Shown here: positions 2,721-52,540 of the stretch, piece after piece
Layout: each line of letters begins with the position of its first letter
How positions within the stretch are numbered: the stretch's first letter is position 1
DNA from: a phage
NCBI GenBank assembly: GCA_026686805.1
Contig: GCA_026686805.1_3949.1
Length of the DNA stretch: 52,601 nt
Direction: 5' to 3' (one strand)
Notes under the pieces: generated by a model
Seen by the model: the letters and a program-made list of their open reading frames with translations, nothing else
The model's database searches: none
Told to the model about the DNA's origin: nothing
Program-made: the position numbers and the translations under genes

Positions 2721-2880
2721 GCTATACAGAGGGCTATTAAGACCACTAGATAGATACTAAGATACTATATAGTACTATATAACTATATAGAGAGTAAGAT
2801 TAAGAAGGTTGTTAAGAAGGATAGATATTTTATTCACATATGATGGTGACCCAGAGGTTGGGACAACCGATAAAATTTTA

Positions 2881-2911
2881 TAAAAATTAAAAAGCCCCCG
2901 ATTAAGGAGGC
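2881..2911 (-). terminator. putative intrinsic terminator ending the leftward gene block
   Basis: imperfect hairpin gccccc/ggaggc followed on the minus strand by a T-rich run (A-run 2881-2893 on plus). Confidence 0.3.
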
Positions 2912-2923
2912 TCTTAAGATATT

Positions 2924-3472: not shown

Positions 3473-3485
3473 AGCTATCACACCA

Positions 3486-5219: not shown

Positions 5220-5566
5220 TTTCCAATCCCTCTCAATCGTTTATTCCACTCAAGGTCAACAAGTCTTTGCAGGACTTTCCCTCTAGGTGTTACACCTTTT
5301 AAATCTGCATCGTAGCAACGGTAAAAGTCACCTTCAGCGTGTTTACCATAGCATTTTCTGATATTCTGACTCCTACGATATTGTTCTAATAGAGACAGCT
5401 TGTAGTAATCTTCAACTGTAGTTAGTTTTTTCATTCTTTCACCGTAGTGTTTCTCTAGAAACAAAAAGGGAACTACCTCTCGATAGCTCCCATCATAATC
5501 AGTGTTGTATACTCGGTCAAGAGTATTTTTTAGGCAGTAATGCGCTACGTTTGTTACTCTCTTCAC
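5216..5566 (-). CDS. hypothetical protein (start uncertain)
   Basis: ORF from track; overlaps upstream ORF, internal Met possible. Confidence 0.4.
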   Translation of the reverse strand: MKRVTNVAHYCLKNTLDRVYNTDYDGSYREVVPFLFLEKHYGERMKKLTTVEDYYKLSLLEQYRRSQNIRKCYGKHAEGDFYRCYDADLKGVTPRGKVLQRLVDLEWNKRLRGIGK

Positions 5567-6098
5567 TCAATAGTGCGATAAATTCGTCGCCTTTACCTTT
5601 CCACGGGCTGAATGAAGGGATATGCTCACGAATAGCCTCAATAACCGTCTTAAGTGCTGTATTTTTCATCCACCAATCAGAATCTGCTGATGCCACTACG
5701 TAGTATCCACCTTCATCAGTCAGAATTGGCTCTGAGATACATGGAGAAATCAAAGTTGTGACGATTGAACCATTGTTCATGTAGTATGTACGCTTAATAA
5801 CCTTTTCAAGAAGCTTGTGAAGGTCACCGAACAGTGTTACAAGTTCTTTGTGGTCAATGTCTTTTTCGAGGCTTGCTCGATACTTCAATAGTGCAGCATC
5901 AACCTCTCTGTCATTGAATTTGAAGTACTGGACTTCATCAACAAGGCAAACACTGATATTGTTGACATTCATAGTCAACTTACAGACTTTTGCAGGAGAA
6001 TTGATACTTGGTTGAAAAAGTGCAACACAACCTTCAATGTTCCCAAAATGTTGGACTAGTGTTACTTGTGGGGTAATATTCTGTTGCTCTTCGGACAT
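5517..6098 (-). CDS. hypothetical protein (193 aa)
   Basis: ORF from track. Confidence 0.5.
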   Translation of the reverse strand: MSEEQQNITPQVTLVQHFGNIEGCVALFQPSINSPAKVCKLTMNVNNISVCLVDEVQYFKFNDREVDAALLKYRASLEKDIDHKELVTLFGDLHKLLEKVIKRTYYMNNGSIVTTLISPCISEPILTDEGGYYVVASADSDWWMKNTALKTVIEAIREHIPSFSPWKGKGDEFIALLSEESNKRSALLPKKYS

Positions 6099-6442
6099 TA
6101 TAGTTTCCTCATTAAATACTTTTTAAGTTGTGTGTTAGGTTTCTCAAAAACTTCTATAGAAGATATCTTGACAGATTCACCACGCATACCTGTGTGTTTG
6201 AATATATAGTACTCTAACATCCCTATATACTTTGCTGGTAAGTCATGTTTGACATACACCGTTACAGAATCTTCAAATTCAACAACCTTTGTACCATCTT
6301 TGTAGTTAAACTCTTTAGGATGGTTGTAGTTGTCGATGTCGTACATTAAAAAGAGTCTTTTCCGTTGCATATCAAGCTTATTGGTTAAAGACTCTTTGAT
6401 GTCTGAGAAGTTTTTATACACTATGACGTGGAGCTTACTCAT
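6098..6442 (-). CDS. hypothetical protein (114 aa)
   Basis: ORF from track. Confidence 0.5.
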   Translation of the reverse strand: MSKLHVIVYKNFSDIKESLTNKLDMQRKRLFLMYDIDNYNHPKEFNYKDGTKVVEFEDSVTVYVKHDLPAKYIGMLEYYIFKHTGMRGESVKISSIEVFEKPNTQLKKYLMRKL

Positions 6443-12576: not shown

Positions 12577-12653
12577 CTCTGTTTAGCTCAGCTTGGTAGA
12601 GCGTTCCGTTTGGGGCGGTAAGGCCGGAGGTTCAAGTCCTCCAACAGAGACCA
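12577..12653 (+). tRNA. tRNA-Pro (anticodon TGG)
   Basis: hand-folded cloverleaf: acceptor ctctgtt/aacagag, D-arm gctcagcttggtagagc, anticodon loop ttTGGgg, T-loop ttcaagt, CCA encoded. Confidence 0.65.
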
Positions 12654-12660
12654 AATTAAT

Positions 12661-12738
12661 GTTCCAGTAGACAAAATGGTAAAGTCACCACTCTTTCAAA
12701 GTGGATATCTGAGGGTTCAAATCCCTTCTGGAACGCCA
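12661..12738 (+). tRNA. tRNA-Glu (anticodon TTC)
   Basis: acceptor gttccag/ctggaac, anticodon stem ccact/agtgg, loop ctTTCaa, T-loop ttcaaat, CCA encoded. Confidence 0.75.
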
Positions 12739-12745
12739 GTTTTGA

Positions 12746-12817
12746 CAGAAGACCAATTACAGCAAACTTAATCTACTCATCTGACACGAAATCGGACAAA
12801 GAAGATATTTGGTCTGG
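12746..12817 (+). repeat. bipartite spacer element copy a (CAGAAGACC-nnWTWCAGCAA ... GGTCTGG)
   Basis: seen directly; 5' block 12746-12765, 3' block 12811-12817; agacc/ggtct can pair. Confidence 0.5.
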
Positions 12818-12828
12818 TCATTGAGAAT

Positions 12829-12905
12829 TGCGGGTATAGAGAAAGGGCGTCTCACATGTCTCATTAGCATGGTATCGGCAGGTTCGACTCCTGCACCCGC
12901 CTCCA
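12829..12905 (+). tRNA. tRNA with CAT anticodon (Met or Ile-lysidine type)
   Basis: anticodon stem catgt/gcatg, loop ctCATta, T-arm gcagg-ttcgact-cctgc, CCA encoded; acceptor has a mismatch at one end so boundaries +/-1. Confidence 0.6.
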
Positions 12906-12911
12906 ATTTTG

Positions 12912-12971
12912 CAGAAGACCGTATTCAGCAACAAAATACTTTTTGCGGATAAAAGAAAAAACACGGTCTGG
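12912..12971 (+). repeat. bipartite spacer element copy b
   Basis: gcagaagaccgtattcagcaa ... acacggtctgg. Confidence 0.5.
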
Positions 12972-12982
12972 CAATGTATTAA

Positions 12983-13059
12983 GGTTAGGAAGCACATAAG
13001 GTATGTGCGGTCGCCTGTTAAGCGAATGGCACAGGGTTCGAATCCCTGACTAACCGCCA
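12983..13059 (+). tRNA. tRNA-Asn (anticodon GTT)
   Basis: acceptor ggttagg/actaacc, D-stem gcac/gtgc, anticodon loop ctGTTaa, T-arm caggg-ttcgaat-ccctg, CCA encoded. Confidence 0.7.
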
Positions 13060-13067
13060 AATTAAAT

Positions 13068-13155
13068 GTGTCGTTATCCCGTAGATGGTAGCGGTGGGGA
13101 CTGTAAATCCCTTGTCATTGAGACTCGGTAGGTTCGACTCCTACACGGCACACCA
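13068..13155 (+). tRNA. tRNA-Tyr (anticodon GTA), long variable arm
   Basis: acceptor gtgtcgt/acggcac, anticodon stem gggga/tccct, loop ctGTAaa, long variable arm, T-arm gtagg-ttcgact-cctac, CCA. Confidence 0.7.
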
Positions 13156-13160
13156 ATAAA

Positions 13161-13237
13161 GGCTATGTAGTTTAACTGGAGAAAATACTCCCCTGTCACG
13201 GGAGATGATGTGAGTTCAAGTCTCATCGTAGCCGCCA
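13161..13237 (+). tRNA. tRNA-Asp (anticodon GTC)
   Basis: acceptor ggctatg/cgtagcc, anticodon stem ctccc/gggag, loop ctGTCac, T-loop ttcaagt, CCA. Confidence 0.75.
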
Positions 13238-13298
13238 ATTTTGAGAGGGCTATTTAGCCCCTCCCTTAAAGAGTTCTTACGAGTATTCTTTAAAGGAG

Positions 13299-13372
13299 CA
13301 GAAGACCAAATACAGCAAGAATGTATGAAATTTCAAGCCAATTTAATTTTGAAAATTTAAAACTTGGTCTGG
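13299..13372 (+). repeat. bipartite spacer element copy c
   Basis: agcagaagaccaaatacagcaa ... aacttggtctgg. Confidence 0.5.
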
Positions 13373-13385
13373 CTCAACAAATTTA

Positions 13386-13517
13386 CAGAAGACCGTTTAC
13401 AGCAAAACTTAAACAATCTATTTCTCCGGTAAAGAAAAGGCGAAGGTTCGATTCCTTCACTCGGCAGATGTCGAGTTGGTGTAATGGTAGCACTTAAGAT
13501 GATAAACAACGGTCTGG
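13386..13517 (+). repeat. bipartite spacer element copy d, enclosing a tRNA-like relic
   Basis: acagaagaccgtttacagcaa ... aacaacggtctgg; interior holds T-arm/acceptor-like and acceptor/D-arm-like segments. Confidence 0.5.
13442..13495 (+). other. tRNA-like relic in reversed half order (T-arm + 3' acceptor strand immediately followed by complementary 5' acceptor strand + D-arm)
   Basis: gaagg-ttcgatt-ccttc + actcggc then gtcgagt + ggtgtaatggtagcac; no complete cloverleaf can be drawn. Confidence 0.35.
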
Positions 13518-13666
13518 TAATTATCTTTGTAGATAAGTTATTAAGCTTACCTGTGAGTATGCGACCACAAAGGGTGAAAGGGTAAATTCTAGATTTAAAC
13601 CCAACAAGGCACATCGCTACAGACCTTAAGCAAGTCTGGGTAGCTTATCTACAAAGGTAATTTAAT

Positions 13667-13742
13667 GGAAGTGTAGCAGAATGGTGATGCGGCAGACTTT
13701 TAATCTGACAGGCGATGGGTTCGAATCCCTCCACTTCTACCA
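13667..13742 (+). tRNA. tRNA-Lys (anticodon TTT)
   Basis: acceptor ggaagtg/cacttct, anticodon loop ctTTTaa, T-loop ttcgaat, CCA; T-stem weak in my fold. Confidence 0.6.
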
Positions 13743-13746
13743 AAAT

Positions 13747-13823
13747 GGTTCAGTCGCAGATAAGGTAATGCAAGGGTCTCATAAGCCCTATGAATGTGGG
13801 TTCAATTCCCATCTGAACCTCCA
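13747..13823 (+). tRNA. tRNA with CAT anticodon (Met, initiator or Ile-lysidine type)
   Basis: acceptor ggttcag/ctgaacc, anticodon stem agggt/gccct, loop ctCATaa, T-loop ttcaatt, CCA. Confidence 0.7.
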
Positions 13824-13831
13824 ATTTATCG

Positions 13832-14326
13832 GTGATACTTATGATTTGTGCTAACAAAGATTGCGGAAATGAAGCCGTTAAAGGTGGAAAATTTTGCTCA
13901 CGCTCTTGTTCTGCAAAAGTGAACAACAAGAAACACCCAAAGAGAAGTCAGGAAGGCTCTTGCCATTCATGCGGAAAGGTAACGCCAAAAGCAAGAAAAT
14001 ACTGTGACGAATGTATTTCAGGTGGAGTCATGAAAAAACATAAGACCCATCATGAAAAAAGCAAAGCTAAATCACTGCACGTTAAAAAGTCTCGTGATAG
14101 ACTGAAGAAGGCTTTAGTTGATTACAAGGGTGGTTGTTGTTCAATTTGTGGTTACAATAGGTGCATAAAGGCTCTAGAGTTTCACCACTTAGACCCTAAC
14201 ACAAAAGACTTCACAGTAGGTCAAAAACACTACTCACTGGCTACAATGCAGTCTGAAGTTGATAAGTGTGTCTTGCTTTGTGCAAATTGCCATAGAGAAG
14301 TACACGAAGGGGTAACAATGCTGTGA
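13832..14326 (+). CDS. HNH homing endonuclease (Cys-rich N-terminus, C-terminal HNH motif)
   Basis: C-terminal ...CSICGYNRC...LEFHHLDPNTKDF...CVLLCANCHREVHEG = HNH signature; embedded in tRNA array; stop codon overlaps start of tRNA-Ile. Confidence 0.75.
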   Translation: MILMICANKDCGNEAVKGGKFCSRSCSAKVNNKKHPKRSQEGSCHSCGKVTPKARKYCDECISGGVMKKHKTHHEKSKAKSLHVKKSRDRLKKALVDYKGGCCSICGYNRCIKALEFHHLDPNTKDFTVGQKHYSLATMQSEVDKCVLLCANCHREVHEGVTML

Positions 14327-14395
14327 AAGCACATATGGATGTGCATTCGGCTGATAACCGAAAGGTAGAAGGTTCGAATCCTTCTCACAGTACCA
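14320..14395 (+). tRNA. tRNA-Ile (anticodon GAT)
   Basis: acceptor gctgtga/tcacagt, D-stem gcac/gtgc, anticodon stem ttcgg/ccgaa, loop ctGATaa, T-arm gaagg-ttcgaat-ccttc, CCA. Confidence 0.75.
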
Positions 14396-14410
14396 ATTTC
14401 AATAAAGTTG

Positions 14411-14439
14411 TTGACATTGAGATGCGACTACTTTATAGT
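14411..14439 (+). promoter_or_regulatory. sigma70-like promoter TTGACA-17-TATAGT inside the tRNA array
   Basis: -35 ttgaca 14411-14416, 17-nt spacer, -10 tatagt 14434-14439. Confidence 0.5.
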
Positions 14440-14445
14440 AACCTT

Positions 14446-14610
14446 AGTTTTCGTTGCGTAGCGTCTATTTTGCAAATTTAAAATAAATGCAAACGACAAT
14501 GTTTTTCTGGCAGTAGCTTGATAGGCTAAACACCAGTGAGGTCTTCCAATCCCTCATCAAAGAATTTGGCGTACTAGCCCACGGTATGATTAATAAGGTG
14601 GGCATCTTTA
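14446..14610 (+). ncRNA. candidate small structured RNA downstream of promoter (no coding potential, no tRNA fold)
   Basis: hairpins tttgca/tgcaaa and gcccac(14577-14582)/gtgggc(14598-14603) followed by atcttt; purely structural inference. Confidence 0.2.
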
Positions 14611-14643
14611 AGGGCTTTCTAAGAGAGTCTTTAAAGATAATTA

Positions 14644-14725
14644 CGGGGCGTATCTCAGCGGTCTTCTAAACCGCCGTTAACCGAGTAAGTGGAGTATGCG
14701 GGTTCGAGTCCTGCCGCCTCGACCA
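14644..14725 (+). tRNA. atypical tRNA-like gene, possible tRNA-Arg (anticodon TCT); D-arm not placeable, 23-nt region between anticodon and T arms
   Basis: acceptor cggggcg/cgcctcg, perfect anticodon arm gcggt-ctTCTaa-accgc, T-arm gcggg-ttcgagt-cctgc, CCA; geometry non-canonical. Confidence 0.35.
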
Positions 14726-14868
14726 ATTTAGTTAGCAGATTACTTAGACGACCTTATCGGGTCTCCGTGTAAGGAGGTGGTCTGTATCTCATGTTTTCCA
14801 GAACATGTAAATAATCTGAGAAGGGGCTTTACAGTGTTGAGATAATACGGTAAGCTTCGAATTATAGT

Positions 14869-14951
14869 ATGGGACGATGTTAAGACTCTAAGGCATGAGC
14901 AACGGCTTCCAACACCGTTTCAAAGGGGTTCAACTCCTCCGTCCCATGCCA
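14869..14951 (+). tRNA. atypical tRNA-like gene, possible tRNA-Trp (anticodon CCA); 7 extra nt between acceptor and D-arm
   Basis: acceptor atgggac/gtcccat (7/7), anticodon arm acggc-ttCCAac-accgt, T-loop ttcaact, CCA. Confidence 0.35.
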
Positions 14952-14964
14952 AAGTCTTATTAGG

Positions 14965-15052
14965 GGTAGGTAGCGGCTAATGGTAGCCAAACTGTCTTGA
15001 AAACAGTTGCCACTGTAGAGATACGGTGAGGGTTCGACTCCTTTACTTACCG
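14965..15052 (+). tRNA. tRNA-Ser (anticodon TGA), long variable arm
   Basis: acceptor ggtaggt/acttacc, perfect anticodon stem actgt/acagt, loop ctTGAaa, 20-nt variable arm, T-arm gaggg-ttcgact-ccttt; CCA not encoded. Confidence 0.7.
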
Positions 15053-15310
15053 CCTAATAAGATTTTAAAGCCAAGCTTCATTCGGATGTTGCTTTGGTAT
15101 CCCTCGTGTATTGTCGTACACACTGATAAAACACCTAGTAGGTGTCACGGAGAAGAGATAATATCAAGCTCTCCAAAGGTTCTAGTCACCGGATTAAACA
15201 AGACTATGCAAAGACCTTTTTAGGTCTTTTTAGAGGGCTTCTAAGGTTATTACGGCTTGTTGTGGAACCTTGTTGCTTAGGTTCTTAGAAGTTCTCTAAA
15301 AAGATTTAAT

Positions 15311-15388
15311 GGGAGATTGACGGTAATTGGTAAACCTATCTCGCTTAGAACGAGATGTTTGAGGGTTCGAATCCCTTGTCTCCTACCA
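15311..15388 (+). tRNA. tRNA with TAG anticodon (Leu by anticodon), short variable loop
   Basis: acceptor gggagat/gtctcct, perfect anticodon stem tctcg/cgaga, loop ctTAGaa, T-loop ttcgaat, CCA; class I architecture unusual for Leu. Confidence 0.55.
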
Positions 15389-15395
15389 AATTAAT

Positions 15396-15471
15396 GCAGG
15401 TGTAGCAAAATGGTTATGCGGCTGACTCTTAATCAGTAAGACGATGGGTTCAATTCCCTCCACCTGTACCA
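15396..15471 (+). tRNA. tRNA-Lys (anticodon CTT)
   Basis: acceptor gcaggtg/cacctgt, anticodon stem gctga/tcagt, loop ctCTTaa, T-loop ttcaatt, CCA. Confidence 0.65.
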
Positions 15472-15476
15472 AAAAT

Positions 15477-15552
15477 GGGGTCATAGTTTATATGGTTAAA
15501 ATTCGAGTTTTGCAAACTTGGGAACTGAGTTCAATTCTCAGTGACTCCACCA
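15477..15552 (+). tRNA. tRNA-Ala (anticodon TGC)
   Basis: acceptor ggggtca/tgactcc, anticodon stem cgagt/acttg, loop ttTGCaa, T-loop ttcaatt, CCA. Confidence 0.65.
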
Positions 15553-15558
15553 ATTAGT

Positions 15559-15633
15559 GCATCCATAGTTTAAACGGGAAAATTACAGTCTTCCAAACTG
15601 AGGTTGAGGGTTCGATTCCCTCTGGATGCTCCA
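15559..15633 (+). tRNA. tRNA-Gly (anticodon TCC)
   Basis: acceptor gcatcca/tggatgc, anticodon loop ctTCCaa, T-arm gaggg-ttcgatt-ccctc, CCA. Confidence 0.7.
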
Positions 15634-15640
15634 AATTAAT

Positions 15641-15716
15641 GCTCCTATCGTATAATTGGCTATTACGGTTGCCTTGTAAGCAACTTATCAGGGTTCGAAT
15701 CCTTGTGGGAGCACCA
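15641..15716 (+). tRNA. tRNA-Thr (anticodon TGT)
   Basis: acceptor gctccta/tgggagc, perfect anticodon stem gttgc/gcaac, loop ctTGTaa, T-loop ttcgaat, CCA. Confidence 0.75.
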
Positions 15717-15718
15717 AT

Positions 15719-15811
15719 TCAGAGGTCAAGTGAAAGACCGCTGGTGTCAACTGAAGACCGTAACAAATTCCACGGAGTTGAGTTAGCGGCACAACTTCAG
15801 ACCTCTTTCAC
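15719..15811 (+). other. structured spacer element (inverted repeat agaggtc ... gacctct, internal gaagaccgtaacaaattc block)
   Basis: seen directly; related to the CAGAAGACC-containing spacer elements; function unknown. Confidence 0.3.
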
Positions 15812-15886
15812 ACTCGCTTAGTTTATATGGTAAAACATCACCCTTACAAGATGAAGAAAAAGGTTCAAGTCCTTTAGTGAGTACCA
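15812..15886 (+). tRNA. tRNA-Val (anticodon TAC)
   Basis: acceptor actcgct/agtgagt, anticodon stem tcacc/gatga (one mismatch), loop ctTACaa, T-arm aaagg-ttcaagt-ccttt, CCA. Confidence 0.65.
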
Positions 15887-15887
15887 T

Positions 15888-15965
15888 GTTCCAGTATCCC
15901 AATTGGCAGAGGATGCAAGCTCAAACCTTGTATTAGTGACGGTTCGAATCCGTCTTGGAACACCA
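15888..15965 (+). tRNA. tRNA with CAA anticodon (Leu by anticodon), short variable loop
   Basis: acceptor gttccag/ttggaac, anticodon stem gcaag/cttgt, loop ctCAAac, T-arm gacgg-ttcgaat-ccgtc, CCA. Confidence 0.55.
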
Positions 15966-15981
15966 ATTTTAGGAGAACACT

Positions 15982-16089
15982 ATGAGCAATAAGTCAATTG
16001 CAAAAAAGTTTAGAGCGTCATACCTAAACAGACGTAAAAACAAAGTTTGTGAAAAACTGTATGGTGTTCTCGTAGGTAAGCAGGATTAG
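15982..16089 (+). CDS. possible small ORF (35 aa, basic) overlapping the 5' end of tRNA-Arg
   Basis: AGGAG RBS 6 nt upstream of ATG; below the track's 60-aa cutoff; overlap with tRNA makes it doubtful. Confidence 0.2.
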   Translation: MSNKSIAKKFRASYLNRRKNKVCEKLYGVLVGKQD

Positions 16090-16155
16090 TTCAAATGGAT
16101 AGAGCAACAGTCTACGAAGCTGTTAATAGGGGTTCGAATCCCTTATCCTGCACCA
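16080..16155 (+). tRNA. tRNA-Arg (anticodon ACG)
   Basis: acceptor gcaggat/atcctgc, D-arm gttcaaatggatagagc, anticodon stem acagt/gctgt, loop ctACGaa, T-loop ttcgaat, CCA. Confidence 0.75.
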
Positions 16156-16174
16156 ATTTAAAGAGGCTATTTAG

Positions 16175-16732
16175 ATGAGATATTTGAAGTATGCTTCATG
16201 GATTTTCTTAGCTTTGTTAGAGCCATTTGCAGCAATCTTAGCAGTTATCTTAGCACCTTTTGTAGTTCCATTCTACAGTGAGAAGAAAGGACACTTACCT
16301 TTCGGGTTCAGATGGATGGAGACATATGACAACCCAATTGATGGTGATGAAGGTCACGTTAAAAGATGGGCTAATATCAGATGGATTGGTAAACTAGGTG
16401 TCTACATGCAAAGAGTCGGATGGCTCTGGAGAAACAAAGCTTATAACTTCTCTTACCATGTATTAGGAAGAGATGTAAAAGATGTTACTAAGTGGAAAGG
16501 TAATATCAACGTAAGTTCTGACCCTGAAGATAATCAGACAGGTTATCTACTAATGTGGAACAGTAATGCTTGGGGATTATTCGCTTTTATCCCATCAATT
16601 AAAATCTTTGGTAAACAATTTTACTGGAGAATTTATATTGGATGGAAACTAAAAAGTGTTGTCCCAGAAGAAAGAGCATTCTCAAGGGAAAGAGTTATGT
16701 TGGCATTCTTTATTCATCCACTGAGAAAGTAA
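16175..16732 (+). CDS. hypothetical protein with hydrophobic N-terminus (185 aa), embedded in tRNA array
   Basis: ORF from track; N-terminal hydrophobic segment WIFLALLEPFAAILAVILAPFVVPF. Confidence 0.5.
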   Translation: MRYLKYASWIFLALLEPFAAILAVILAPFVVPFYSEKKGHLPFGFRWMETYDNPIDGDEGHVKRWANIRWIGKLGVYMQRVGWLWRNKAYNFSYHVLGRDVKDVTKWKGNINVSSDPEDNQTGYLLMWNSNAWGLFAFIPSIKIFGKQFYWRIYIGWKLKSVVPEERAFSRERVMLAFFIHPLRK

Positions 16733-16740
16733 AGATTTAA

Positions 16741-16816
16741 AGGGGATTAGTTTACAAGGTTAAAACCTCGGTCTTTGAAATCGAAGAAGTTGGTTCAATT
16801 CCAACATCCCCCGCCA
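16741..16816 (+). tRNA. tRNA-Gln (anticodon TTG)
   Basis: acceptor aggggat/atccccc (1-72 mismatch), anticodon stem tcggt/atcga, loop ctTTGaa, T-arm gttgg-ttcaatt-ccaac, CCA. Confidence 0.65.
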
Positions 16817-16818
16817 AT

Positions 16819-16897
16819 GCTCCATTACTCCAATTGGCAGAGAGGCCAGACTTAAAATCTGTGTTATGTATCGGTTCGAATCCGATATGGAGTACCA
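16819..16897 (+). tRNA. tRNA with TAA anticodon (Leu by anticodon), short variable loop
   Basis: acceptor gctccat/atggagt, anticodon stem caga/tctg, loop ctTAAaa, T-arm atcgg-ttcgaat-ccgat, CCA. Confidence 0.5.
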
Positions 16898-16902
16898 AAT
16901 TT

Positions 16903-16978
16903 AGCGGCATAGCATAACTGGCAATGCAGCAGTCTCTGAAGCTGTCTTATTAAGGTTCAAATCCTTATGCCGCTGCCA
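16903..16978 (+). tRNA. tRNA-Gln (anticodon CTG)
   Basis: acceptor agcggca/tgccgct, D-stem gcat/atgc, anticodon loop ctCTGaa (stem with two G-U pairs), T-arm taagg-ttcaaat-cctta, CCA. Confidence 0.55.
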
Positions 16979-17009
16979 CTTCTAAGGATTCTTACGAGAG
17001 TCCTTAAAT

Positions 17010-17085
17010 GTGGCCTTATCATAAACGGTAATGACCCATGCTGTGAACATGGTCTATACGGGTTCAAATCCCGTAGGTCACCCCA
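17010..17085 (+). tRNA. tRNA-His (anticodon GTG)
   Basis: acceptor gtggcct/aggtcac, perfect anticodon stem ccatg/catgg, loop ctGTGaa, T-arm acggg-ttcaaat-cccgt, CCA. Confidence 0.7.
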
Positions 17086-17091
17086 ATTTAT

Positions 17092-17167
17092 AGTCCAAGT
17101 AGCTTATATGGTTAAAGCGCGTGTCTGAAAAACATGAGAAGAGTGTTCAAATCCCACTGGACTACCA
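17092..17167 (+). tRNA. tRNA-Phe (anticodon GAA)
   Basis: acceptor (t)agtcca/tggact(a), anticodon stem cgtgt/acatg, loop ctGAAaa, T-loop ttcaaat; 5' boundary +/-1. Confidence 0.6.
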
Positions 17168-17183
17168 ATTTCAAAGGTGCTTA

Positions 17184-17918
17184 ATGAAAGAGATGACAGA
17201 ACAAGGTAAGGAGATTTTCAATCTCTTAAAAACCGGTAAAGGGTTTTCTAACCCCCTTATTACTGGTGCAGCAGTTCTCGGTGGAACCGTAGCTGCCTCT
17301 ACATCACTTGTAAGCTCTATTAGCTCTGTATCAGACCCTACAGTAAAGGATAAGCTTGTTGCTGCTGGACTTACAACAGTTCTGCTTAACAGCTTTACCA
17401 CGAGTCTGACAAGCACTACATCAACTACCAAAACACTAACAGATTACGGTCAAAAATCCATTGATGAGTTTTCATCACGTATGCAGGTAGCAAAAGGTTA
17501 TTCTAATGTTATGGGTGCAGCAGGTGAACAAGTTGGCTGTACACCATTTAGTGGTATTATGGGTGTTGCTACAGAGTATGGTCAAAAAGCTATTGATACG
17601 ATTAACAGTGCACTAGATAGTGTTAATGGTGTGTTAAGTGACTTACAAGATGCTATTGACAAAGGTCTTGATACTATTTCTGATTTAGCTGAGCAAGCTG
17701 TTAGTAAGATTAATGAAGGTATTTCAAAAATTACAGCTTATGCAGATGAAGTTGTGCAGATGATTGAAGAAGAAGCTGCTCTTATTGCAGAGTACCTTAA
17801 AACGAATATCAATGGGTTCTTAGCAGGTATCTTACCAGACTGGTTTGATGATGCTTGTAAAACTGGTGTAATTGACACTATTGCAACACCAGAAATGAAG
17901 AACGCATTACAGAAATAA
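17184..17918 (+). CDS. hypothetical Ser/Thr-rich protein (244 aa), embedded in tRNA array
   Basis: track ORF 17121..17918 overlaps tRNA-Phe; ATG at 17184 has RBS aaaggtg and clears the tRNA. Confidence 0.5.
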   Translation: MKEMTEQGKEIFNLLKTGKGFSNPLITGAAVLGGTVAASTSLVSSISSVSDPTVKDKLVAAGLTTVLLNSFTTSLTSTTSTTKTLTDYGQKSIDEFSSRMQVAKGYSNVMGAAGEQVGCTPFSGIMGVATEYGQKAIDTINSALDSVNGVLSDLQDAIDKGLDTISDLAEQAVSKINEGISKITAYADEVVQMIEEEAALIAEYLKTNINGFLAGILPDWFDDACKTGVIDTIATPEMKNALQK

Positions 17919-17920
17919 AT

Positions 17921-18013
17921 GGAAGATTAACCCTAAAAGGTAAGGGAGCAGTTTGCTAAACTGCCAGTAGCTGAGAAATCGGTGTACCAGTTCAAGTCTG
18001 GTATCTTCCTCCA
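17921..18013 (+). tRNA. tRNA-Ser (anticodon GCT), long variable arm
   Basis: acceptor ggaagat/atcttcc, perfect anticodon stem gcagt/actgc, loop ttGCTaa, ~21-nt variable arm, T-arm accag-ttcaagt-ctggt, CCA. Confidence 0.75.
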
Positions 18014-18017
18014 ATTT

Positions 18018-18093
18018 GAATCCGTGACAGAAATGGCTATGTGCCTGTCTGCAAAACAGGTTTATAAGGGTTCGAGTCCCTTCGGATTCTCCA
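18018..18093 (+). tRNA. tRNA-Cys (anticodon GCA)
   Basis: acceptor gaatccg/cggattc, perfect anticodon stem cctgt/acagg, loop ctGCAaa, T-arm aaggg-ttcgagt-ccctt, CCA. Confidence 0.75.
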
Positions 18094-45748: not shown

Positions 45749-46029
45749 AATGACCTCAAAGTTATATTAAATTTTGTATTACATTGAGTATAAAAATAAG
45801 CTATAACACCTGACTTGTCAACAGATTTTATAGCTTATTTGGCAGATTTTTTATAAGGCTACTGCCATCCTTCCATACCAGACTACACCATGCCAGACCA
45901 GACTTCACATCACCTTACCGTGCAATACATGACTTAAAACCCTTTTAGAAGACTCTTAAGTGATGCTGGTGAGTACCCGTTGGTTTATGCTGCTCAGTAT
46001 ACTCACCATATTTTCTATGTCAACAACTT

Positions 46030-46179: not shown

Positions 46180-47283
46180 TTACTCATAATCCCTAATAAC
46201 TAGCCCGACAGGGAACTGTAAAGAACCCTTACGAGTCATCTTCTGGAACTGAACCGTTAAAGGCTTCCCGATAAACTCTTCAGGATGTTCAGCAAGATAC
46301 TTTTTCTTCTCATGAGTAGTCTTCCATGAGACATCTACAAAGACGTTAGGAAGAGTCTCTACAACGAACTTACCGTGACCACGTTTATCAGTCTTGACAC
46401 CAGTCACTTTAAACTCTTCAGTGTGCATCTTCTTGTGCTTAATCAAGAAGTATGAACGGTGACAACACTCATAGAAAGATTCTTCAGAGATTGAACGGTA
46501 CATTGCACCTTCAAACTGAGCTTCAACCCACTTATCATGGGCTTCATCAAACTCTTCCCAAGAATTTACACGACGAGACTTAACAGGAACAACTTTACAG
46601 CCGTCTCTGAAGTCATTCAATGGTGAAGTCTCAATAATATCTCTACGCTCAGGCCACGTCTTAGTACTGTCACAGATATCATACCAGTAAAACTTGAGTA
46701 GATGTCGGTCAGGATTGTCTTCATTTTTAATCATGGAGACAATATCTTCTAAGTCCAACCCATGAGCATAGATTTCACCATCAAATTCATCAACATCTTT
46801 ATGGAGCCTCAACATTGCCATAATGTCAGGTATTAGCTCAGTAGGAATTTTATAAATAGTGTTCTCACGAGAATATGCTGTAAATACACTACCAATACTT
46901 AAGTGTCTTGAAATTCTACAACGTACACCATCCAGTTTCGGTTGAGCATCAGCAGGGAACTTCAGATACTTTGCATGACTAACCTTTGCAGCATCATGAG
47001 CAAGCTGTACACCTACCTTCTCAGTATTCTGTGCAGACTCTTTTGTGTAAGCATAACCTTTACGGTCAACTTGCTTTTTATACTTAGCAGTAACTTCAAA
47101 GAGAGCTTGCTGTTCAGCGTTACGCTCATTCTTTTTACCGATGTTCTTAGGCTCTGCTGTGTACTCTTCAAACATCATCTTGCCATTTTCTTTACCGTAG
47201 GTTGTAATAACTTTGTCACCTACAGCAACGCATGACCAGACGTTAAAAGAGCCGTCTTTATTTTGTTTGTACAGAATTGTCAT
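46180..47283 (-). CDS. ATP-dependent DNA ligase
   Basis: adenylation motif I KLDGVR; motif III-like FDGEIYAHG; EGAMYRS; LIKHK; start set at second ATG (47283, AGAGGA RBS) rather than track start 47319. Confidence 0.75.
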   Translation of the reverse strand: MTILYKQNKDGSFNVWSCVAVGDKVITTYGKENGKMMFEEYTAEPKNIGKKNERNAEQQALFEVTAKYKKQVDRKGYAYTKESAQNTEKVGVQLAHDAAKVSHAKYLKFPADAQPKLDGVRCRISRHLSIGSVFTAYSRENTIYKIPTELIPDIMAMLRLHKDVDEFDGEIYAHGLDLEDIVSMIKNEDNPDRHLLKFYWYDICDSTKTWPERRDIIETSPLNDFRDGCKVVPVKSRRVNSWEEFDEAHDKWVEAQFEGAMYRSISEESFYECCHRSYFLIKHKKMHTEEFKVTGVKTDKRGHGKFVVETLPNVFVDVSWKTTHEKKKYLAEHPEEFIGKPLTVQFQKMTRKGSLQFPVGLVIRDYE

Positions 47284-47284
47284 T

Positions 47285-47476
47285 TTATTCCTCTGAGTGA
47301 TACCAAGTGTTGCAAGCATTACATGCGTAAAGCTCTAAGTCATTTTTATCTGGTTTATGGAAACAGTTTGCTCCGCAGTGGCAACGAAACGGCTTTCCAC
47401 CAACTGTCAGGATGAAGGATTGAACCTTTCCATCAGGGGTCCGTACAGCATTTTTATGCTTATCTTCTTTGTTCAT
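47285..47476 (-). CDS. small Cys-rich zinc-ribbon protein (63 aa), paralog of 47801..48004
   Basis: shared pattern KNAV.T.DG...FIL.V.GK.FRC.CG.NCFHKPD...L..Y.CN.C. Confidence 0.5.
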   Translation of the reverse strand: MNKEDKHKNAVRTPDGKVQSFILTVGGKPFRCHCGANCFHKPDKNDLELYACNACNTWYHSEE

Positions 47477-47555
47477 TTATCTCTTGCCTCACAAGCTATG
47501 CAGCCTTTTGAGTAGAAGGAGTGCCAAGCATGTCCACCAAAGTCTTCTTTGGTAA

Positions 47556-47804
47556 TTAAATTGAATTTATAGCTTCCATGTGTTTTCCGTAGAAATCTAA
47601 ACATTTTTCATCTTGCTCCTTTATGTAACTATCATAAAATTCAGGTGATTCTGGTCTTTCACCAAAGGAAATAACCTTCAGGTAGTACTTACCATATGTG
47701 GAGCTGTCTAACCAAGAATCAAATAGTAATTTCTTAGTATTAGTCTTTGGAGGGATTACCAAGCTTTTCTCATACAATTCCTTCATCTCTTGAGTTATCT
47801 TCAT
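47556..47804 (-). CDS. hypothetical protein (82 aa)
   Basis: ORF from track. Confidence 0.45.
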   Translation of the reverse strand: MKITQEMKELYEKSLVIPPKTNTKKLLFDSWLDSSTYGKYYLKVISFGERPESPEFYDSYIKEQDEKCLDFYGKHMEAINSI

Positions 47805-48004
47805 TGCATACCCTTAATCTTACCTAAGAACCTTACACCACAATTATTACACTCGTATATGTCTAAATTTGTGTTATCAGGTTTATGAAAACAGTTTGAC
47901 CCACAACGACACCGGAATAGCTTACCATCAACACGAAGAATGAATGTTTCAAGCTCACCATCTTCTGTAAGAACTGCGTTCTTAAATTTATTATCTTTAC
48001 CCAT
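47801..48004 (-). CDS. small Cys-rich zinc-ribbon protein (67 aa), paralog of 47285..47476
   Basis: see paralog. Confidence 0.5.
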   Translation of the reverse strand: MGKDNKFKNAVLTEDGELETFILRVDGKLFRCRCGSNCFHKPDNTNLDIYECNNCGVRFLGKIKGMQ

Positions 48005-48160
48005 TTGTACTCTCGCCTGTGTCAGATTTCATATAAGACCTATCACTACGTCTTTTAATGAAATGTACAACGCATTTCGGTGTATCTTTTGCATCTTTGA
48101 TGTGCAACCTTTCGAAACTACGCACTGTGAAGGTTGCATCTGTCATTGTTTGCTTAGATT

Positions 48161-48418
48161 TCATTTTCTCTTACCTCCAATCTCTACATCAATAACTTGA
48201 ACATCACCAGCAACATCAAAATTATGAATGATGCTCTCCACAGTGTAAGTCCAACCATCAATGCGAACCAACTCACCTTCTCGTGGGACTATTGGGTTAC
48301 GTTGAGCTACGGTTGTAGTGGAGTGAACAACATCATAACAATAGATGTAGTTTACTAAGACTTCCATCGCGAAAACCTCACTCAATAACCGTAGTGTGTG
48401 ATTGTCCATTTTTGCCAT
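48161..48418 (-). CDS. hypothetical protein (start uncertain)
   Basis: ORF from track; overlaps upstream lipoprotein ORF by 41 nt. Confidence 0.4.
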   Translation of the reverse strand: MAKMDNHTLRLLSEVFAMEVLVNYIYCYDVVHSTTTVAQRNPIVPREGELVRIDGWTYTVESIIHNFDVAGDVQVIDVEIGGKRK

Positions 48419-49243: not shown

Positions 49244-49810
49244 TCAACTTAGTTTTGCAAACTCTCCGTGGAGTTTTACAGCAGCTTCACAGTAAGCTTT
49301 ATGGGCTTCTTCAGGTGTGTCATAGTAGCCTAATGACATCTTTTTACCTTTATAGCTTATTTGCGCAAACCACCTACCAGACTTCTTCTTCAGGCTTACA
49401 CCCTTATAGCCTGATTTATTGGTGGATAGTTTGCTTTTATTCCAAGCACTTTGGTAGTCATCTGCTTCTCTTAAGTTTACAATCCTGTTATCAAGGGAGT
49501 CTCCATTAATGTGGTCAATAACACCTTTCGGTAACCTACCATACACGTACAGCCATGCGAGTCTGTGTGCTTTATGTGCTTTCTTGTCAAAATAGATAGT
49601 AATCTGCTTATGACCAGTTGAGTCAATCTGGATGCTCCCCGCTACCTGTCCTGCGTACTTACTATTAAAGACTTTAACAGCCCTTGAGTCACCCTCTCTA
49701 CGAAGCCAAGTAAAGACCCCTGTTTCGGGGTCATAGTGTAGTAGCTCCTTTAAACGTTCTTGTGTAATCATTTTGTCACCATTAATGCACTTCCAACCAC
49801 GATTTACCAA
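49244..49810 (-). CDS. HNH homing endonuclease with C-terminal AP2-type DNA-binding domain
   Basis: HNH core ...KAHRLAWLYVYGRLPKGVIDHINGDSLDNRIVNLREA..; AP2-like ...GYKGVS...GRWFAQISYKGKKMSLGYYDTPEEAHKAY..; track start overlaps the polymerase 3' end, alternative ATG at 49771. Confidence 0.7.
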   Translation of the reverse strand: MVNRGWKCINGDKMITQERLKELLHYDPETGVFTWLRREGDSRAVKVFNSKYAGQVAGSIQIDSTGHKQITIYFDKKAHKAHRLAWLYVYGRLPKGVIDHINGDSLDNRIVNLREADDYQSAWNKSKLSTNKSGYKGVSLKKKSGRWFAQISYKGKKMSLGYYDTPEEAHKAYCEAAVKLHGEFAKLS

Positions 49811-52481
49811 CCTTACCAGTACCAGTTACCAGTGTTTCACTCTTTAGTCCTAAGTTCTTAGAGGCTTGCCCGTAATACCAATCAGTGACAGCCTTCACCT
49901 CTGCCGTCATACTTTCTGGGCATTCCCAACTCGTCTCGTCGTGATAGGAGCACAATAAACGAGCACCTATAGCTGGTTTGCGACCGTTCAACTTCATCAA
50001 ACCTTCGTCAATCATACGACGGCAAGCAAGGTTAATTGCCTCGTTCTGAATCTGACTTTCCGAACCCATGAGCAAATAATTCAACAACTTATGTGGAGAT
50101 TTACACCACAACCAAGCTCCAGCAACCTTTACAAAACCCCCTTTAGAGATTGCAGCAGTCTTACCAAACACCTCTTCAAGTGCCTTTTTAGTTGCTTTGT
50201 AGTCAGCTTCCAAGTCATCTAGCAGCTTCTTAATTTTAGGCAAACGAATAAAGTAAGTCTGTTTAGTCAGTGCACCTTCCTGAGTAGTTGCAGCTTTAAT
50301 CGTCTTAGCAAACTTCTCATCACCTGCACCGAACAGCAGTGCATAGATACCATTCTTAGCTTTTTTACGACCCTTACTAATCTCATGGAGAAGATTCTCA
50401 TCCTGAGTGGCTCGACAAGTCAAGATATCCTGCTCATCATTCAAGCTAAAGTAAATACTGTTCAGTGTGTGTGCATCAGTCCCTGAATAGACAACGTACA
50501 GGTCATTCTCAGAGTCATAGCGGAGGTACTTATCAATCTCTGGGTTGAGGTACTCATCAAAGTGTTTGCAGTAATAGCGTCCATCTTCTTGACGAATAAA
50601 CTCAATCTCTTCTTTACCTTGCGTTACCGCTTTGGTGAAGTCTTTGTCACCCATAAAGTTACAAAGAAGAACTAGCTGGGCTGAGTTCATATCTACAGAG
50701 ACGACGTTAGTACCTTCTTCACAAATCCACACTGCCCTCATTGGTTCCCCATAGACAGCAGCACCAGACGGTACGTTTACAATACCATATTGTGTCATAC
50801 GCCCAGTTGAAGTACCAAATACCATTGCACCAGCACTAAGGCGACCATCTGGACGAATCTGGTTTAACCAACCTTTTTCATCATCCTTTGAGTTCTCAAT
50901 GGTTCTGCGTCGGTGCATCAAAGTATAGTATTTAGCAATCTTCTGTCCAAGCTCACCTTCAATCGTATCATAAGAAGATTCAGTAAGTTTTGGTGAAGTA
51001 CGGATTAAGCAAGGTTCAAGCAAATCCGTGTACTTCTTCACAGACCAGTTATGTTCAATGTACTGGACACCTTCATGTTCAACATAACTCAAGCCACACC
51101 GTTCAACCATCTCCTGCCACTTAGGATGCTTTGTAATCATCTTTTTGTTGTCTTTGAAACGACAAACTTTGACAGGGCGACCATCTGAGTCTTTCTTGTA
51201 GTTCCAGTCATCTGGAATCCAACCAACTGACTTCAAGTAGTCTTTAACAACTGCTACCTGAGTCATACGAGAAACTTCAAACTCAATTGGTGTATATGGT
51301 GCATCAATCAATCCTGTGTAGCGACTTGACTCAAGTTCAAAGTGGTTAACAACATGGCTGTTATAGTACTTCACAGTTTTAACAGTTTTTACTGGCTTCC
51401 AGTCTTTGCATTTCTTACCAATCTTTGCATTCAACTCGTTGCAAATTGCACGAGCATCCTTCATTGCTACAAAACCTTCCTTGTACTCTTCACCAGTTAC
51501 AGAGTTGGTTGGTGTGTAGCAATTTCTCTTTTCAATGTTAAAAATCTTTGTAGTTGGCTTACCAAATGGCTTGATTTCGTATGTCTGCATCTCACCGTTA
51601 CGCACCTGTTGACGATACTTTGTCTTAGGATACTTGGTAATTCTCTTCAGTCCATCTGCATGACCAAATGTTTCAACATACTCATTCCAAGCTTTTGCAA
51701 ACTCTTCTCCAGTGACTTTACCTTTGGTCTTAATAGTTGGAGGAAGGTGTGGTTCAACCTCTGAAGCAAGCTCATTAGTCAACTTGTCAAGTTCCTTTAC
51801 ATGGAACTCCATAAGCTCTTTATCAGCTTTCCAACCATTGATAGCTTGTTGGCTCATCCAGAAAGATGTCTCTTTAGCTCGCATGTAAGTTTCATAAGTG
51901 TCTATACCACACTTCTTAAGCTTGAGATACTCGTTATCAAGTGCCCGTTTAGTTTTGGCGTTAATACGGATATCTTCTACAACACGAGTGAAGATTTCTG
52001 CATTCCACACACCCCAATGTTCAATCTCTGGTTTACGAACACCAACACGAGCACCCCATGCAGCCAAACCATGAGCACCTTTATAACCCTTTGGAGTTGG
52101 TCTATCCATCCACTGAACACGAGACTGGATAAGAGAGTCCTGAAAGAAATTACTCCACGGCTTACATTTTGGATTATCAAAGTTCCATAAATCCGGTGCA
52201 ATGTGATTGAAAACCCACCAGTCATAACCGAGACCATTATGGATACAAAGTCGTTTTGCCTTCAACGCAAACTCAATACCTTCACGTAAACCACCCTTAA
52301 TGTACTTAGTGTACTTGTGGCCGAGGATAGGCTCATCTGTGAAGACCCATACAGGTGGCTCTTCATCGTCAGATTTATAGTCTGCAAAAGCCATTACGTG
52401 AACTTTAGTGAACTCAAGGAGTAAACCATCAGTTTCTGTATCACCAACTAAATGTAAGTTTTTAAAATCTACGTTTTCCAT
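49782..52481 (-). CDS. DNA polymerase, family A (Pol I-like) with 3'-5' exonuclease domain
   Basis: exo motif I LVGDTETDGL near N-terminus; polymerase motifs VSVDMNSAQLVLL (A-like), RKKAKNGIYALLFGAG (B-like), CSYHDETSWE (C-like); start set at ATG 52481 (GAGGGAG RBS) rather than track 52511. Confidence 0.8.
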   Translation of the reverse strand: MENVDFKNLHLVGDTETDGLLLEFTKVHVMAFADYKSDDEEPPVWVFTDEPILGHKYTKYIKGGLREGIEFALKAKRLCIHNGLGYDWWVFNHIAPDLWNFDNPKCKPWSNFFQDSLIQSRVQWMDRPTPKGYKGAHGLAAWGARVGVRKPEIEHWGVWNAEIFTRVVEDIRINAKTKRALDNEYLKLKKCGIDTYETYMRAKETSFWMSQQAINGWKADKELMEFHVKELDKLTNELASEVEPHLPPTIKTKGKVTGEEFAKAWNEYVETFGHADGLKRITKYPKTKYRQQVRNGEMQTYEIKPFGKPTTKIFNIEKRNCYTPTNSVTGEEYKEGFVAMKDARAICNELNAKIGKKCKDWKPVKTVKTVKYYNSHVVNHFELESSRYTGLIDAPYTPIEFEVSRMTQVAVVKDYLKSVGWIPDDWNYKKDSDGRPVKVCRFKDNKKMITKHPKWQEMVERCGLSYVEHEGVQYIEHNWSVKKYTDLLEPCLIRTSPKLTESSYDTIEGELGQKIAKYYTLMHRRRTIENSKDDEKGWLNQIRPDGRLSAGAMVFGTSTGRMTQYGIVNVPSGAAVYGEPMRAVWICEEGTNVVSVDMNSAQLVLLCNFMGDKDFTKAVTQGKEEIEFIRQEDGRYYCKHFDEYLNPEIDKYLRYDSENDLYVVYSGTDAHTLNSIYFSLNDEQDILTCRATQDENLLHEISKGRKKAKNGIYALLFGAGDEKFAKTIKAATTQEGALTKQTYFIRLPKIKKLLDDLEADYKATKKALEEVFGKTAAISKGGFVKVAGAWLWCKSPHKLLNYLLMGSESQIQNEAINLACRRMIDEGLMKLNGRKPAIGARLLCSYHDETSWECPESMTAEVKAVTDWYYGQASKNLGLKSETLVTGTGKVGKSWLEVH

Positions 52482-52540
52482 TTTTACTCCCTCTAAAATC
52501 ATTAACCTCATACATTACTGCAAAAAATTATAAAAAGCAA

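Follow-up and report, generated by a model that had tools for sequence, protein, structure and literature searches.

Two short Cys-rich open reading frames that resemble each other flank an unrelated small gene in a phage DNA stretch of 52,601 nt (hereafter the window). The locus raises the question of whether these ORFs are real paralogous genes, how one phage came to carry both, and what proteins of this size might do between a DNA polymerase and a DNA ligase.

The locus and its operon

We searched a 3.3-kb stretch around the locus and observed matches in 260 phage records at 80-99% identity, nearly all of them Felix O1-like (Ounavirinae, Felixounavirus) phages of Escherichia, Salmonella and Shigella. 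By these matches the window is a Felixounavirus sequence. The two ORFs, which we call Zn1 and Zn2, were found at the coordinates given in the initial annotation, both on the minus strand (Table 1). The replication-region location that it proposed also held, since both lie in the polymerase-HNH-...-ligase operon of this phage, within a run that leads from DNA polymerase through an HNH/AP2 endonuclease and several small ORFs to an ATP-dependent DNA ligase. Along this run the order is 85 aa, 55 aa, Zn2, 82 aa, 43 aa, Zn1 and ligase.

Table 1. Features of the polymerase-ligase run in the window
Feature	Position	Strand	Remark
DNA polymerase	49782..52511	-	first gene of the run
HNH/AP2 endonuclease	49244..49810	-	second gene of the run
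55-aa ORF immediately upstream of Zn2	47997..48164	-	within the hypervariable slot
Zn2, 67-aa paralog, upstream copy	47801..48004	-	PHROG 5768 match; 56% identical to Zn1
17-mer AACTGTTTTCATAAACC in Zn2	47880..47896	-	upstream crossover partner (proposed)
82-aa gene, PHROG 32421, function unassigned	47556..47804	-	enclosed by Zn1 and Zn2
43-aa ORF, PHROG 20095 partial match (E 1.5e-14)	47473..47604	-	annotated in EC6
Zn1, 63-aa Cys4 zinc-ribbon protein (predicted), PHROG 5768	47285..47476	-	usual slot directly upstream of ligase
17-mer AACTGTTTCCATAAACC in Zn1, codons N-C-F-H-K-P	47352..47368	-	downstream crossover partner (proposed)
ATP-dependent DNA ligase, 367 aa from the ATG at 47283	46180..47283	-	last operon gene; annotated DNA ligase in relatives

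Neighbouring genes in the run abut or overlap by 4-8 nt. Zn2 ends in an ATGA overlap with the start codon of the 82-aa gene, the 43-aa ORF overlaps the 3' end of the 82-aa gene and also the Zn1 start (by 4 nt), and the Zn1 stop codon TAA (47287..47285) is one base away from the ligase ATG. The ligase Shine-Dalgarno sequence, GAGGA, sits within the last codons of Zn1. When the run from polymerase to ligase was scanned, no promoter-like or terminator-like site was prominent inside it, while a strong sigma-70-like site was seen after the ligase (46023..45996). Zn1 and Zn2 are thus predicted to be co-transcribed with the DNA polymerase and the ligase.

Zn1 and Zn2 are diverged paralogs and maintained genes

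We compared the two proteins by BLASTP and observed 33/59 identities (56%) and 75% positives, with no gaps and an E value of 2e-26. This gapless alignment reproduced the residue pattern that had first drawn attention to the pair, and the similarity is far beyond chance. Both proteins also matched the PHROG 5768 profile end-to-end, Zn1 with an E value of 1.6e-40 (residues 1-63 of the 66-position profile) and Zn2 with 1.9e-33. The claim that they are diverged paralogs was therefore confirmed. The gene between them is indeed an unrelated small one (the 82-aa gene), and the initial annotation had omitted the 43-aa ORF that overlaps it.

The dN/dS ratio among close alleles was 0-0.17 for Zn1 and 0.14-0.42 for Zn2. 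This purifying selection establishes both as real and maintained coding genes. Synonymous divergence between Zn1 and Zn2 was saturated, indicating that the split is old. The small size of the ORFs is the one point in favour of a chance resemblance, or of ORFs that are not genes at all; however, this reading is refuted, with a negligible probability, by the E value of the alignment, by hundreds of homologs, by purifying selection and by the Shine-Dalgarno sequences and coupled starts of the Zn ORFs.

A phage family of predicted Cys4 zinc ribbons

Single-sequence, word-indexed protein searches returned 5-6 close relatives, and the family became visible only by an exhaustive profile search. Among 1.84 billion representatives, this search retrieved 464 clusters (at 50% identity) at E<=1e-3, of which 108 were at E<=1e-10. 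PHROG 5768 is a large, phage-restricted family of putative single-domain Cys4 (C-x-C...C-x-x-C) zinc-ribbon proteins, with the consensus G-K-x-F-R-C-x-C-G-C-N-V-F-H-K-P-D...L-Y-x-C-N-x-C-G..Y.GE.

We examined conservation in 151 representatives of the family. C32, C52 and C55 were present in 100%, C34 and N53 in 99%, N37 and F39 in 97%, P42 in 93%, G27 in 90% and H40 in 87%. Zn1 and Zn2 both carry C-x-C ... C-N-x-C along with G27, N37, F39 and P42. Of the 151, 106 have a third Cys at position 36, 16 have it at position 38 (the Felix type, to which Zn1 and Zn2 belong) and 4 have it at both positions. The remaining 25 lack it, so it is not an obligatory ligand, and the simplest prediction for the metal site is C32/C34/C52/C55. 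We also considered an Fe-S cluster or another metal site formed by the third Cys and His40, and dismissed it on the same 25 representatives and on the 87% conservation of His40.

An AlphaFold model built from an 11-sequence alignment was poor (pLDDT 61), and a 101-sequence alignment was used instead. This gave an all-beta model with a pLDDT of 89. With the four invariant Cys residues, the model agrees with the earlier description of small, Cys-rich proteins of the zinc-ribbon type. As modelled, the domain resembles generic Cys4 ribbons (the C-terminal ribbons of TFIIS, Rpb9 and TFS4, RpoP, and the ribosomal eL43 type) in having four Cys in two putative knuckles of a small all-beta domain. However, the first knuckle of this family has the spacing C-x-C in place of C-x-x-C and leads into a family-specific motif, G-C-N-V-F-H-K-P-D, and the N-terminus carries an additional hairpin.

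Scans of Zn1, Zn2 and the 82-aa protein against Pfam, NCBIfam and PADLOC gave no match at or near threshold. A PDB sequence search with two profiles gave only spurious matches to C2H2 linkers, of the H-K-P...Y-x-C-x-x-C type; the single sub-threshold match was to a C2H2 finger protein (E 9e-4), with no domain passing alone. Literature searches on the PHROG identifier, on Felix O1 with ligase and zinc, and on Felixounavirus with zinc returned nothing relevant. Fold searches with the AlphaFold model gave no significant structural match, and the weak best matches were TFS4 and Rpb9. Another reading is a transcription factor, a ribbon of the TFIIS, Rpb9 or TFS4-like kind that would bind host RNA polymerase and redirect it. 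For a transcription ribbon of the TFIIS/Rpb9 type, neither the profile nor the fold match was significant for Zn1 or Zn2, and we regard such a role as very unlikely.

Three known identities were also evaluated. An HNH (beta-beta-alpha metal) nuclease was considered for its similar order of C..C-G, h-H-x-P and L-x-L-x-C-x-x-C, and was excluded: there was no HNH Pfam match at E<=1, no helix is seen in the model, and only 8 residues follow C55. Zn1 and Zn2 are not themselves ATP-dependent DNA ligases, being 63 and 67 aa long with no Pfam ligase match and no K-x-D-G. Some homologs of 60-70 aa in GenBank are named 'DNA ligase', and we traced this label to 'DNA ligase [Salmonella phage BPS17W1]' via pVOG 1487; the name is an annotation carry-over. 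As for Lar/Ral (PF14354), the Lar_restr_allev profile did not match Zn1 or Zn2 at E<=1.

Many relatives are longer than Zn1 and Zn2. Among 243 retrieved relatives, 94 (about 40%) have at least 88 aa, and all 94 match PHROG 5768, mostly as a C-terminal module behind heterogeneous N-terminal extensions. The known N-terminal domains, with one case each, were Lar-like, Tad2-like, NUDIX, dATP/dGTP pyrophosphohydrolase, RyR, DUF2934 and DUF7128. In the relative P0019, the Lar domain stands apart at the N-terminus (residues 3-61).

An optional cassette in a variable slot

We estimated the distribution of the family among relatives by tblastn. It was found in 235 phage records at 245 places in total, so that two copies per genome are rare. 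The hosts of the family were Ounavirinae, Stephanstirmvirinae, some Erwinia phages, and Microbacterium and Arthrobacter phages. By identity bands, about 90 records have a pure type-1 gene, and the Zn1 protein is 100% identical in wV8, EC6, pSJ21 and others. Full-length type-2 copies (86-91% identical to Zn2) were seen in 10 records. The nine type-2 carriers listed, namely EC6 (two records), DE17, BPS17W1 (two records), BPS15S6, BPS17S6, pSJ21 and KEP2, have two matching places each. Shigella phage vB_SflM_004 also has two matching places; its locus looks like a chimeric assembly and was left out.

The 82-aa gene was found by tblastn at >=90% identity in only 9 records, which are the Zn2-carrying phages, and the gene order in EC6 is the same as in the window (Zn2, 82, 43, Zn1, ligase). 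Since the 82-aa gene co-occurs with Zn2 in this way, Zn2 and the 82-aa gene (with the 43-aa ORF where examined) form an optional cassette, carried by about 10 of the 235 records. The Zn genes of the window do not depart in kind from the rest of PHROG 5768; the window only has two members in tandem.

The surroundings of the Zn gene vary as well. Pr103Blw, fjerdesal and LMP34 have the 55-aa ORF, whereas Felix O1 and garuso lack it. In Pr103Blw and CL1 the Zn gene is separated from the ligase by inserted HNH genes, and in Kolesnikvirus the Zn gene is placed after rIIA/rIIB. Upstream of its ligase, phage L27 has a 48%-identical homolog of the 82-aa protein and an 81%-identical 43-aa ORF, and the Zn gene is absent. 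When the complete L27 genome was searched in six frames with the family profile, nothing was found at E<=10, while the same search gave exactly two matches in the window. The C-terminal 27 aa of the 43-aa ORF are conserved beside the ligase in L27 and in Mooglevirus phages. The named categories of the tblastn organism summary (four others were unnamed) held no Citrobacter (Mooglevirus) record, although Mooglevirus has the ligase. Since L27 has no family member, the Zn gene is dispensable. The slot upstream of the ligase is hypervariable, and the gene is accessory rather than an obligatory ligase partner.

Hybrid genes and the history of the tandem copies

We aligned single-copy genes with Zn1 and Zn2 at the nucleotide level, and observed that Felix O1 ORF210 and the genes of fjerdesal, LMP34, SP116 and MBP4696116 are Zn2(5')::Zn1(3') hybrids. 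The 5' 116 nt of these genes were 94-98% identical to Zn2 and 63-66% to Zn1, while the 3' part was 95-97% identical to Zn1 and about 55% to Zn2. At sites that differ between Zn1 and Zn2, fjerdesal was Zn2-like at 41/41 in the 5' part and Zn1-like at 32/33 in the 3' part (Fisher p 4e-20). For Felix O1 the p value was 4e-15, and the range across hybrids was 1e-13 to 4e-20. The switch point lies within the conserved AACTGTTTYCATAAACC (47896..47880 in Zn2, 47368..47352 in Zn1).

By tblastn, 84 records fell in the band of 60-80% identity to Zn2 and 103 in the band of 60-80% to Zn1. Judged by identity band, the hybrid is present in roughly 85-100 records. Among the Felixounavirus tblastn records we saw neither a reciprocal N1::C2 gene nor a full type-2 gene in single copy.

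These hybrids indicate that Zn1 and Zn2 behave as direct repeats. A crossover in the shared 17 bp (the N-C-F-H-K-P codons), either intramolecular or unequal, would delete 528 bp in frame and leave an N2::C1 gene beside the ligase. The polarity of the hybrids, N2::C1 without the reciprocal, together with parsimony, favours deletion from the tandem state as their source. The same hybrid could also have come from one founder recombination between two co-infecting phages. A T/C site in the 17-mer does not support a claim of independent crossovers, since the site is polymorphic among Zn2 alleles too.

Other junctions were also seen. In Pr103Blw, a type-1 body follows an upstream flank of Zn2 type, which comprises the 55-aa gene and the first two codons. 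At the ligase-adjacent position, Suspvirus SUSP2 has a type-1 gene, while Suspvirus SUSP1 has a type-2 C-terminal half (78% nucleotide identity to the 3' part of Zn2). The SUSP1 and SUSP2 pattern indicates that the two types also behave as old alternative alleles of a single ligase-adjacent gene. The tandem state may therefore have come from the joining of two alleles and not from duplication in place. Thus, of the earlier description of the genes as duplicated, the paralogy stands, while a duplication in place has to be qualified.

Neighbours, fusions and possible functions

In Felixounavirus and Suspvirus the Zn gene lies directly upstream of the ligase, and this adjacency is kept despite 50% protein divergence. 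An unrelated phage locus from IMG/VR (L068) has a family member of 166 aa, then one intervening gene's distance downstream an ATP-dependent ligase with only 24% identity to the ligase of the window, and a Cas4-like nuclease 2.5 kb further on. In lambdoid prophages of Pseudomonas aeruginosa and Cupriavidus, the gene belongs to the early-left operon, where it has the cI repressor on one side and Erf or RecT, YqaJ and SSB on the other. The 643-aa gp62 of Microbacterium phage Marcie carries a PHROG 5768 domain at residues 475-524 (42.8 bits); its N-terminus matches exonuclease PHROG 1674 and Cas4-type PHROG 1706, which makes gp62 a fusion to a Cas4/RecB-like exonuclease, and a RecA-like recombinase is encoded one gene away. 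Elsewhere, in other large phages, the family gene is found within arrays of small unknown genes, and the neighbours are uninformative.

A Pfam scan of 150 same-strand neighbour proteins from about 34 diverse loci gave, as raw counts without a background control, SSB and cI-type Peptidase_S24 as the commonest matches (6 each), followed by HNH_3 (5) and Sipho_Gp157 (3). YqaJ, AAA_24, PNKP phosphatase and ATP-dependent ligase were seen twice each, and RecT, RNA ligase, RNase H and RadC once each. Genes for replication and recombination abound in early phage regions as a rule, and we gave these associations modest weight. The strongest item is the gp62 fusion, in which both parts are in the same polypeptide.

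Zn1 and Zn2 have no catalytic motif. The ligase, exonuclease and SSB neighbours and the Cas4-like exonuclease fusion point to a small non-catalytic module, stabilised by zinc, with a binding or adaptor role in transactions at phage DNA ends and nicks. The Zn protein would recruit or modulate the ligase, recombination exonucleases or SSB on DNA. This assignment is tentative, and we give it somewhat less than an even chance. Against it, no homology to any characterised protein was found. With a net charge of +1 to +2 by sequence count, the proteins are only weakly basic, which gives little reason to expect strong DNA binding. Every small gene of the operon shares the tight coupling to the ligase, so this coupling is weak evidence, and the HNH insertions in Pr103Blw and CL1 and the placement after rIIB in Kolesnikvirus speak against a ligase link. 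For the whole account, that is, the recombination history together with the DNA-transaction module, we estimate a probability of about 0.5.

A narrower form of the ligase link is that the Zn protein is a dedicated subunit or cofactor of the phage ATP-dependent ligase, supplying a DNA-binding or nick-sensing finger that the minimal 367-aa enzyme lacks. Cellular DNA ligases with zinc fingers are known, such as the Cys4 finger of the NAD+-dependent LigA and the PARP-like finger of Lig3. By analogy, a zinc module would here too be tied to a nick-sealing enzyme, with Zn1 as a separate and translationally coupled gene. The single nucleotide between the Zn1 stop and the ligase ATG, the ligase Shine-Dalgarno sequence inside Zn1, the adjacency conserved in Felixounavirus and Suspvirus, and the independent co-occurrence with a distant ligase in L068 are all consistent with such a cofactor. 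However, no homology to the LigA and Lig3 fingers was detected, and Zn1 is outside the ligase polypeptide. L27 has an orthologous ligase with no Zn gene, Mooglevirus has a ligase and no Zn match among the organisms named by tblastn, and for most family members the phage or prophage has no ligase in the vicinity of the gene. In Pr103Blw and CL1, HNH genes part the two, and the 'DNA ligase' label on the small ORF goes back to BPS17W1. Since ligases occur without the gene and the gene without ligases, a dedicated ligase cofactor is unlikely, and we give it only a slight chance.

The main rival to a role in DNA transactions is counter-defence or host takeover, the latter suggested by the initial annotation, in which the ribbon would bind and neutralise a host protein, e.g. 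a component of restriction or defence, or a nuclease such as RecBCD. Lambda Gam, P22 Abc2 and T7 gp5.9 neutralise host proteins and are encoded beside phage recombination or replication genes, and Ral, Gam and Abc of lambda and P22 lie in the early-left operon between cI and the recombination genes. Like Gam, Abc1/Abc2 and Ral/Lar, the Zn gene is small, early, dispensable and, in prophages, beside Erf/RecT-exonuclease-SSB genes, and one relative is fused to a Lar-like domain. The prophage position between cI and Erf or RecT in Pseudomonas and Cupriavidus fits such a role. So do the variable copy number and exchange between phages of a dispensable gene, its usual setting in arrays of small unknown genes, and the single fusions to Lar-like, Tad2-like, NUDIX and dATP/dGTP pyrophosphohydrolase domains.

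However, there is no sequence relationship to Gam, Abc, Ral or Lar (the Pfam Lar model included), neither PADLOC nor the anti-defence Pfam models matched Zn1 or Zn2, and no known regulator family matched them either. Each anti-defence fusion is a lone case, with the Tad2-like and Lar matches only in the N-terminal extensions. The alleles are under purifying and not diversifying selection, and the core motif is highly conserved in phages of both Proteobacteria and Actinobacteria, a pattern more in keeping with a universal ligand than with a fast-evolving defence target. The Cas4-like exonuclease fusion is also hard to reconcile with a pure inhibitor. We therefore consider counter-defence rather unlikely, and retain the DNA-transaction module as the preferred reading.

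A bolder extension of the DNA-transaction module is that the PHROG 5768 domain is a portable zinc ribbon, previously unrecognised, that targets DNA nicks or DNA ends either as a free protein or fused to an enzyme. We consider this improbable. If true, the ribbon would direct minimal ligases, Cas4/RecB-like and YqaJ exonucleases, and SSB-coated intermediates in replication-coupled recombination, and the two diverged copies would serve two different partners.

Significance of the locus and the family

Zn1 and Zn2 are two copies of an ordinary phage accessory gene already placed in an uncharacterised PHROG family, to which Felix O1 ORF210 (the hybrid) and wV8 gp098 also belong; the wV8 and EC6 proteins are 100% identical to Zn1. 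The 'DNA ligase' name on GenBank proteins of 60-70 aa is flagged here as a mis-annotation. A large and sharply conserved family that lacks a model in both Pfam and NCBIfam, PHROG 5768 recurs beside or fused to DNA-joining and recombination enzymes, and all this makes it a reasonable biochemical target. The locus is a clean natural example in which tandem paralogs would drive the loss of a cassette and create functional hybrid genes, and the type phage Felix O1 itself carries such a hybrid.

Coding and translational features at the ligase junction

We observed that GAGGA, the Shine-Dalgarno sequence of the ligase gene, sits within the final codons (..S-E-E-stop) of Zn1, the 63-aa zinc-ribbon gene directly upstream. 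In the Felix O1-type alleles, where a single hybrid gene joins the 5' part of Zn2 (the paralog of Zn1) to the 3' part of Zn1, the Zn1 stop codon is out of frame, and the Zn ORF therefore runs on for 9 extra codons (..EVKNDNPIQTK), giving a 26-nt overlap with the ligase start. The region's best match to a sigma-70-like promoter (TTGACA, 16-nt spacer, TATACT; 11/12) was found just downstream of the ligase, and the next transcription unit on the minus strand probably begins from this predicted promoter.

The 82-aa gene that precedes Zn1 shares its last 49 nt with a 43-aa ORF, which also overlaps the Zn1 start by 4 nt. The C-terminal 27 residues of this ORF, ITKEDFGGHAWHSFYSKGCIACEARDK, are conserved directly upstream of the ligase in other phages: L27 has a counterpart with 81% identity, and Mooglevirus phages keep these residues at 63-70% identity. 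The ORF probably represents either a genuine small gene or what is left of a gene.

In some relatives, the Zn gene and the ligase are separated by a 176-186-aa gene inserted precisely at their junction. As judged by its size and position, the inserted gene of Pr103Blw and CL1 is probably a homing endonuclease.

Coordinates of features in the window and in related loci
Feature	Sequence	Position	Strand
tRNA cluster	window	12577..18093	+
Sigma-70-like site	window	46023..45996	-
Zn1/ligase junction with the ligase Shine-Dalgarno sequence	window	47281..47300	
43-aa ORF	window	47473..47604	-
HNH/AP2 endonuclease	window	49244..49810	-
DNA polymerase (single 909-aa ORF)	window	49782..52511	-
Zn ORF labelled 'DNA ligase'	pSJ21 (L001)	3302..3505	
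Region of the split polymerase annotation	pSJ21 (L001)	5122..6141	
Inserted gene	Pr103Blw (L002)	2758..3318	
Zn ORF extension and ligase start	Felix O1 (L004)	2186..2219	
Zn ORF labelled 'DNA ligase'	fjerdesal (L012)	701..919	
Inserted gene	CL1 (L015)	895..1425	
gp62 (643 aa)	Microbacterium phage Marcie (L027)	1564..3495	

The polymerase region and database records

The HNH/AP2 endonuclease gene lies downstream of the polymerase gene, and its start overlaps the polymerase end by 29 nt. The polymerase is one ORF in the window. The annotations of pSJ21, EC6 and L27 divide it into two CDS separated by a gap, a layout suggestive of an intervening element or a frameshift at this place. The window also carries a cluster of 25 tRNA genes.

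In several GenBank records of relatives, the 63-72-aa zinc-ribbon ORF is named 'DNA ligase'. The fjerdesal record gives the source of this label as 'DNA ligase [Salmonella phage BPS17W1]', via pVOG 1487. No ligase domain is present in the zinc-ribbon protein.

Felix O1-like sequence of the Zn1/Zn2 region was also present in GU169904.1, MG065664.1 and MG065668.1, which bear the names 'Staphylococcus phage SA1' and 'Campylobacter phage A126/A132'; these are likely to be mislabelled or contaminated entries.

A zinc ribbon fused to a Cas4/RecB-like exonuclease

Marcie gp62, annotated as 'hypothetical protein', has a Cas4/RecB-like exonuclease (PHROG 1674 and 1706) at its N-terminus and, in the same polypeptide, the PHROG 5768 zinc ribbon of Zn1 and Zn2 at residues 475-524. 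The locus also encodes a RecA-like recombinase, one gene upstream of gp62.
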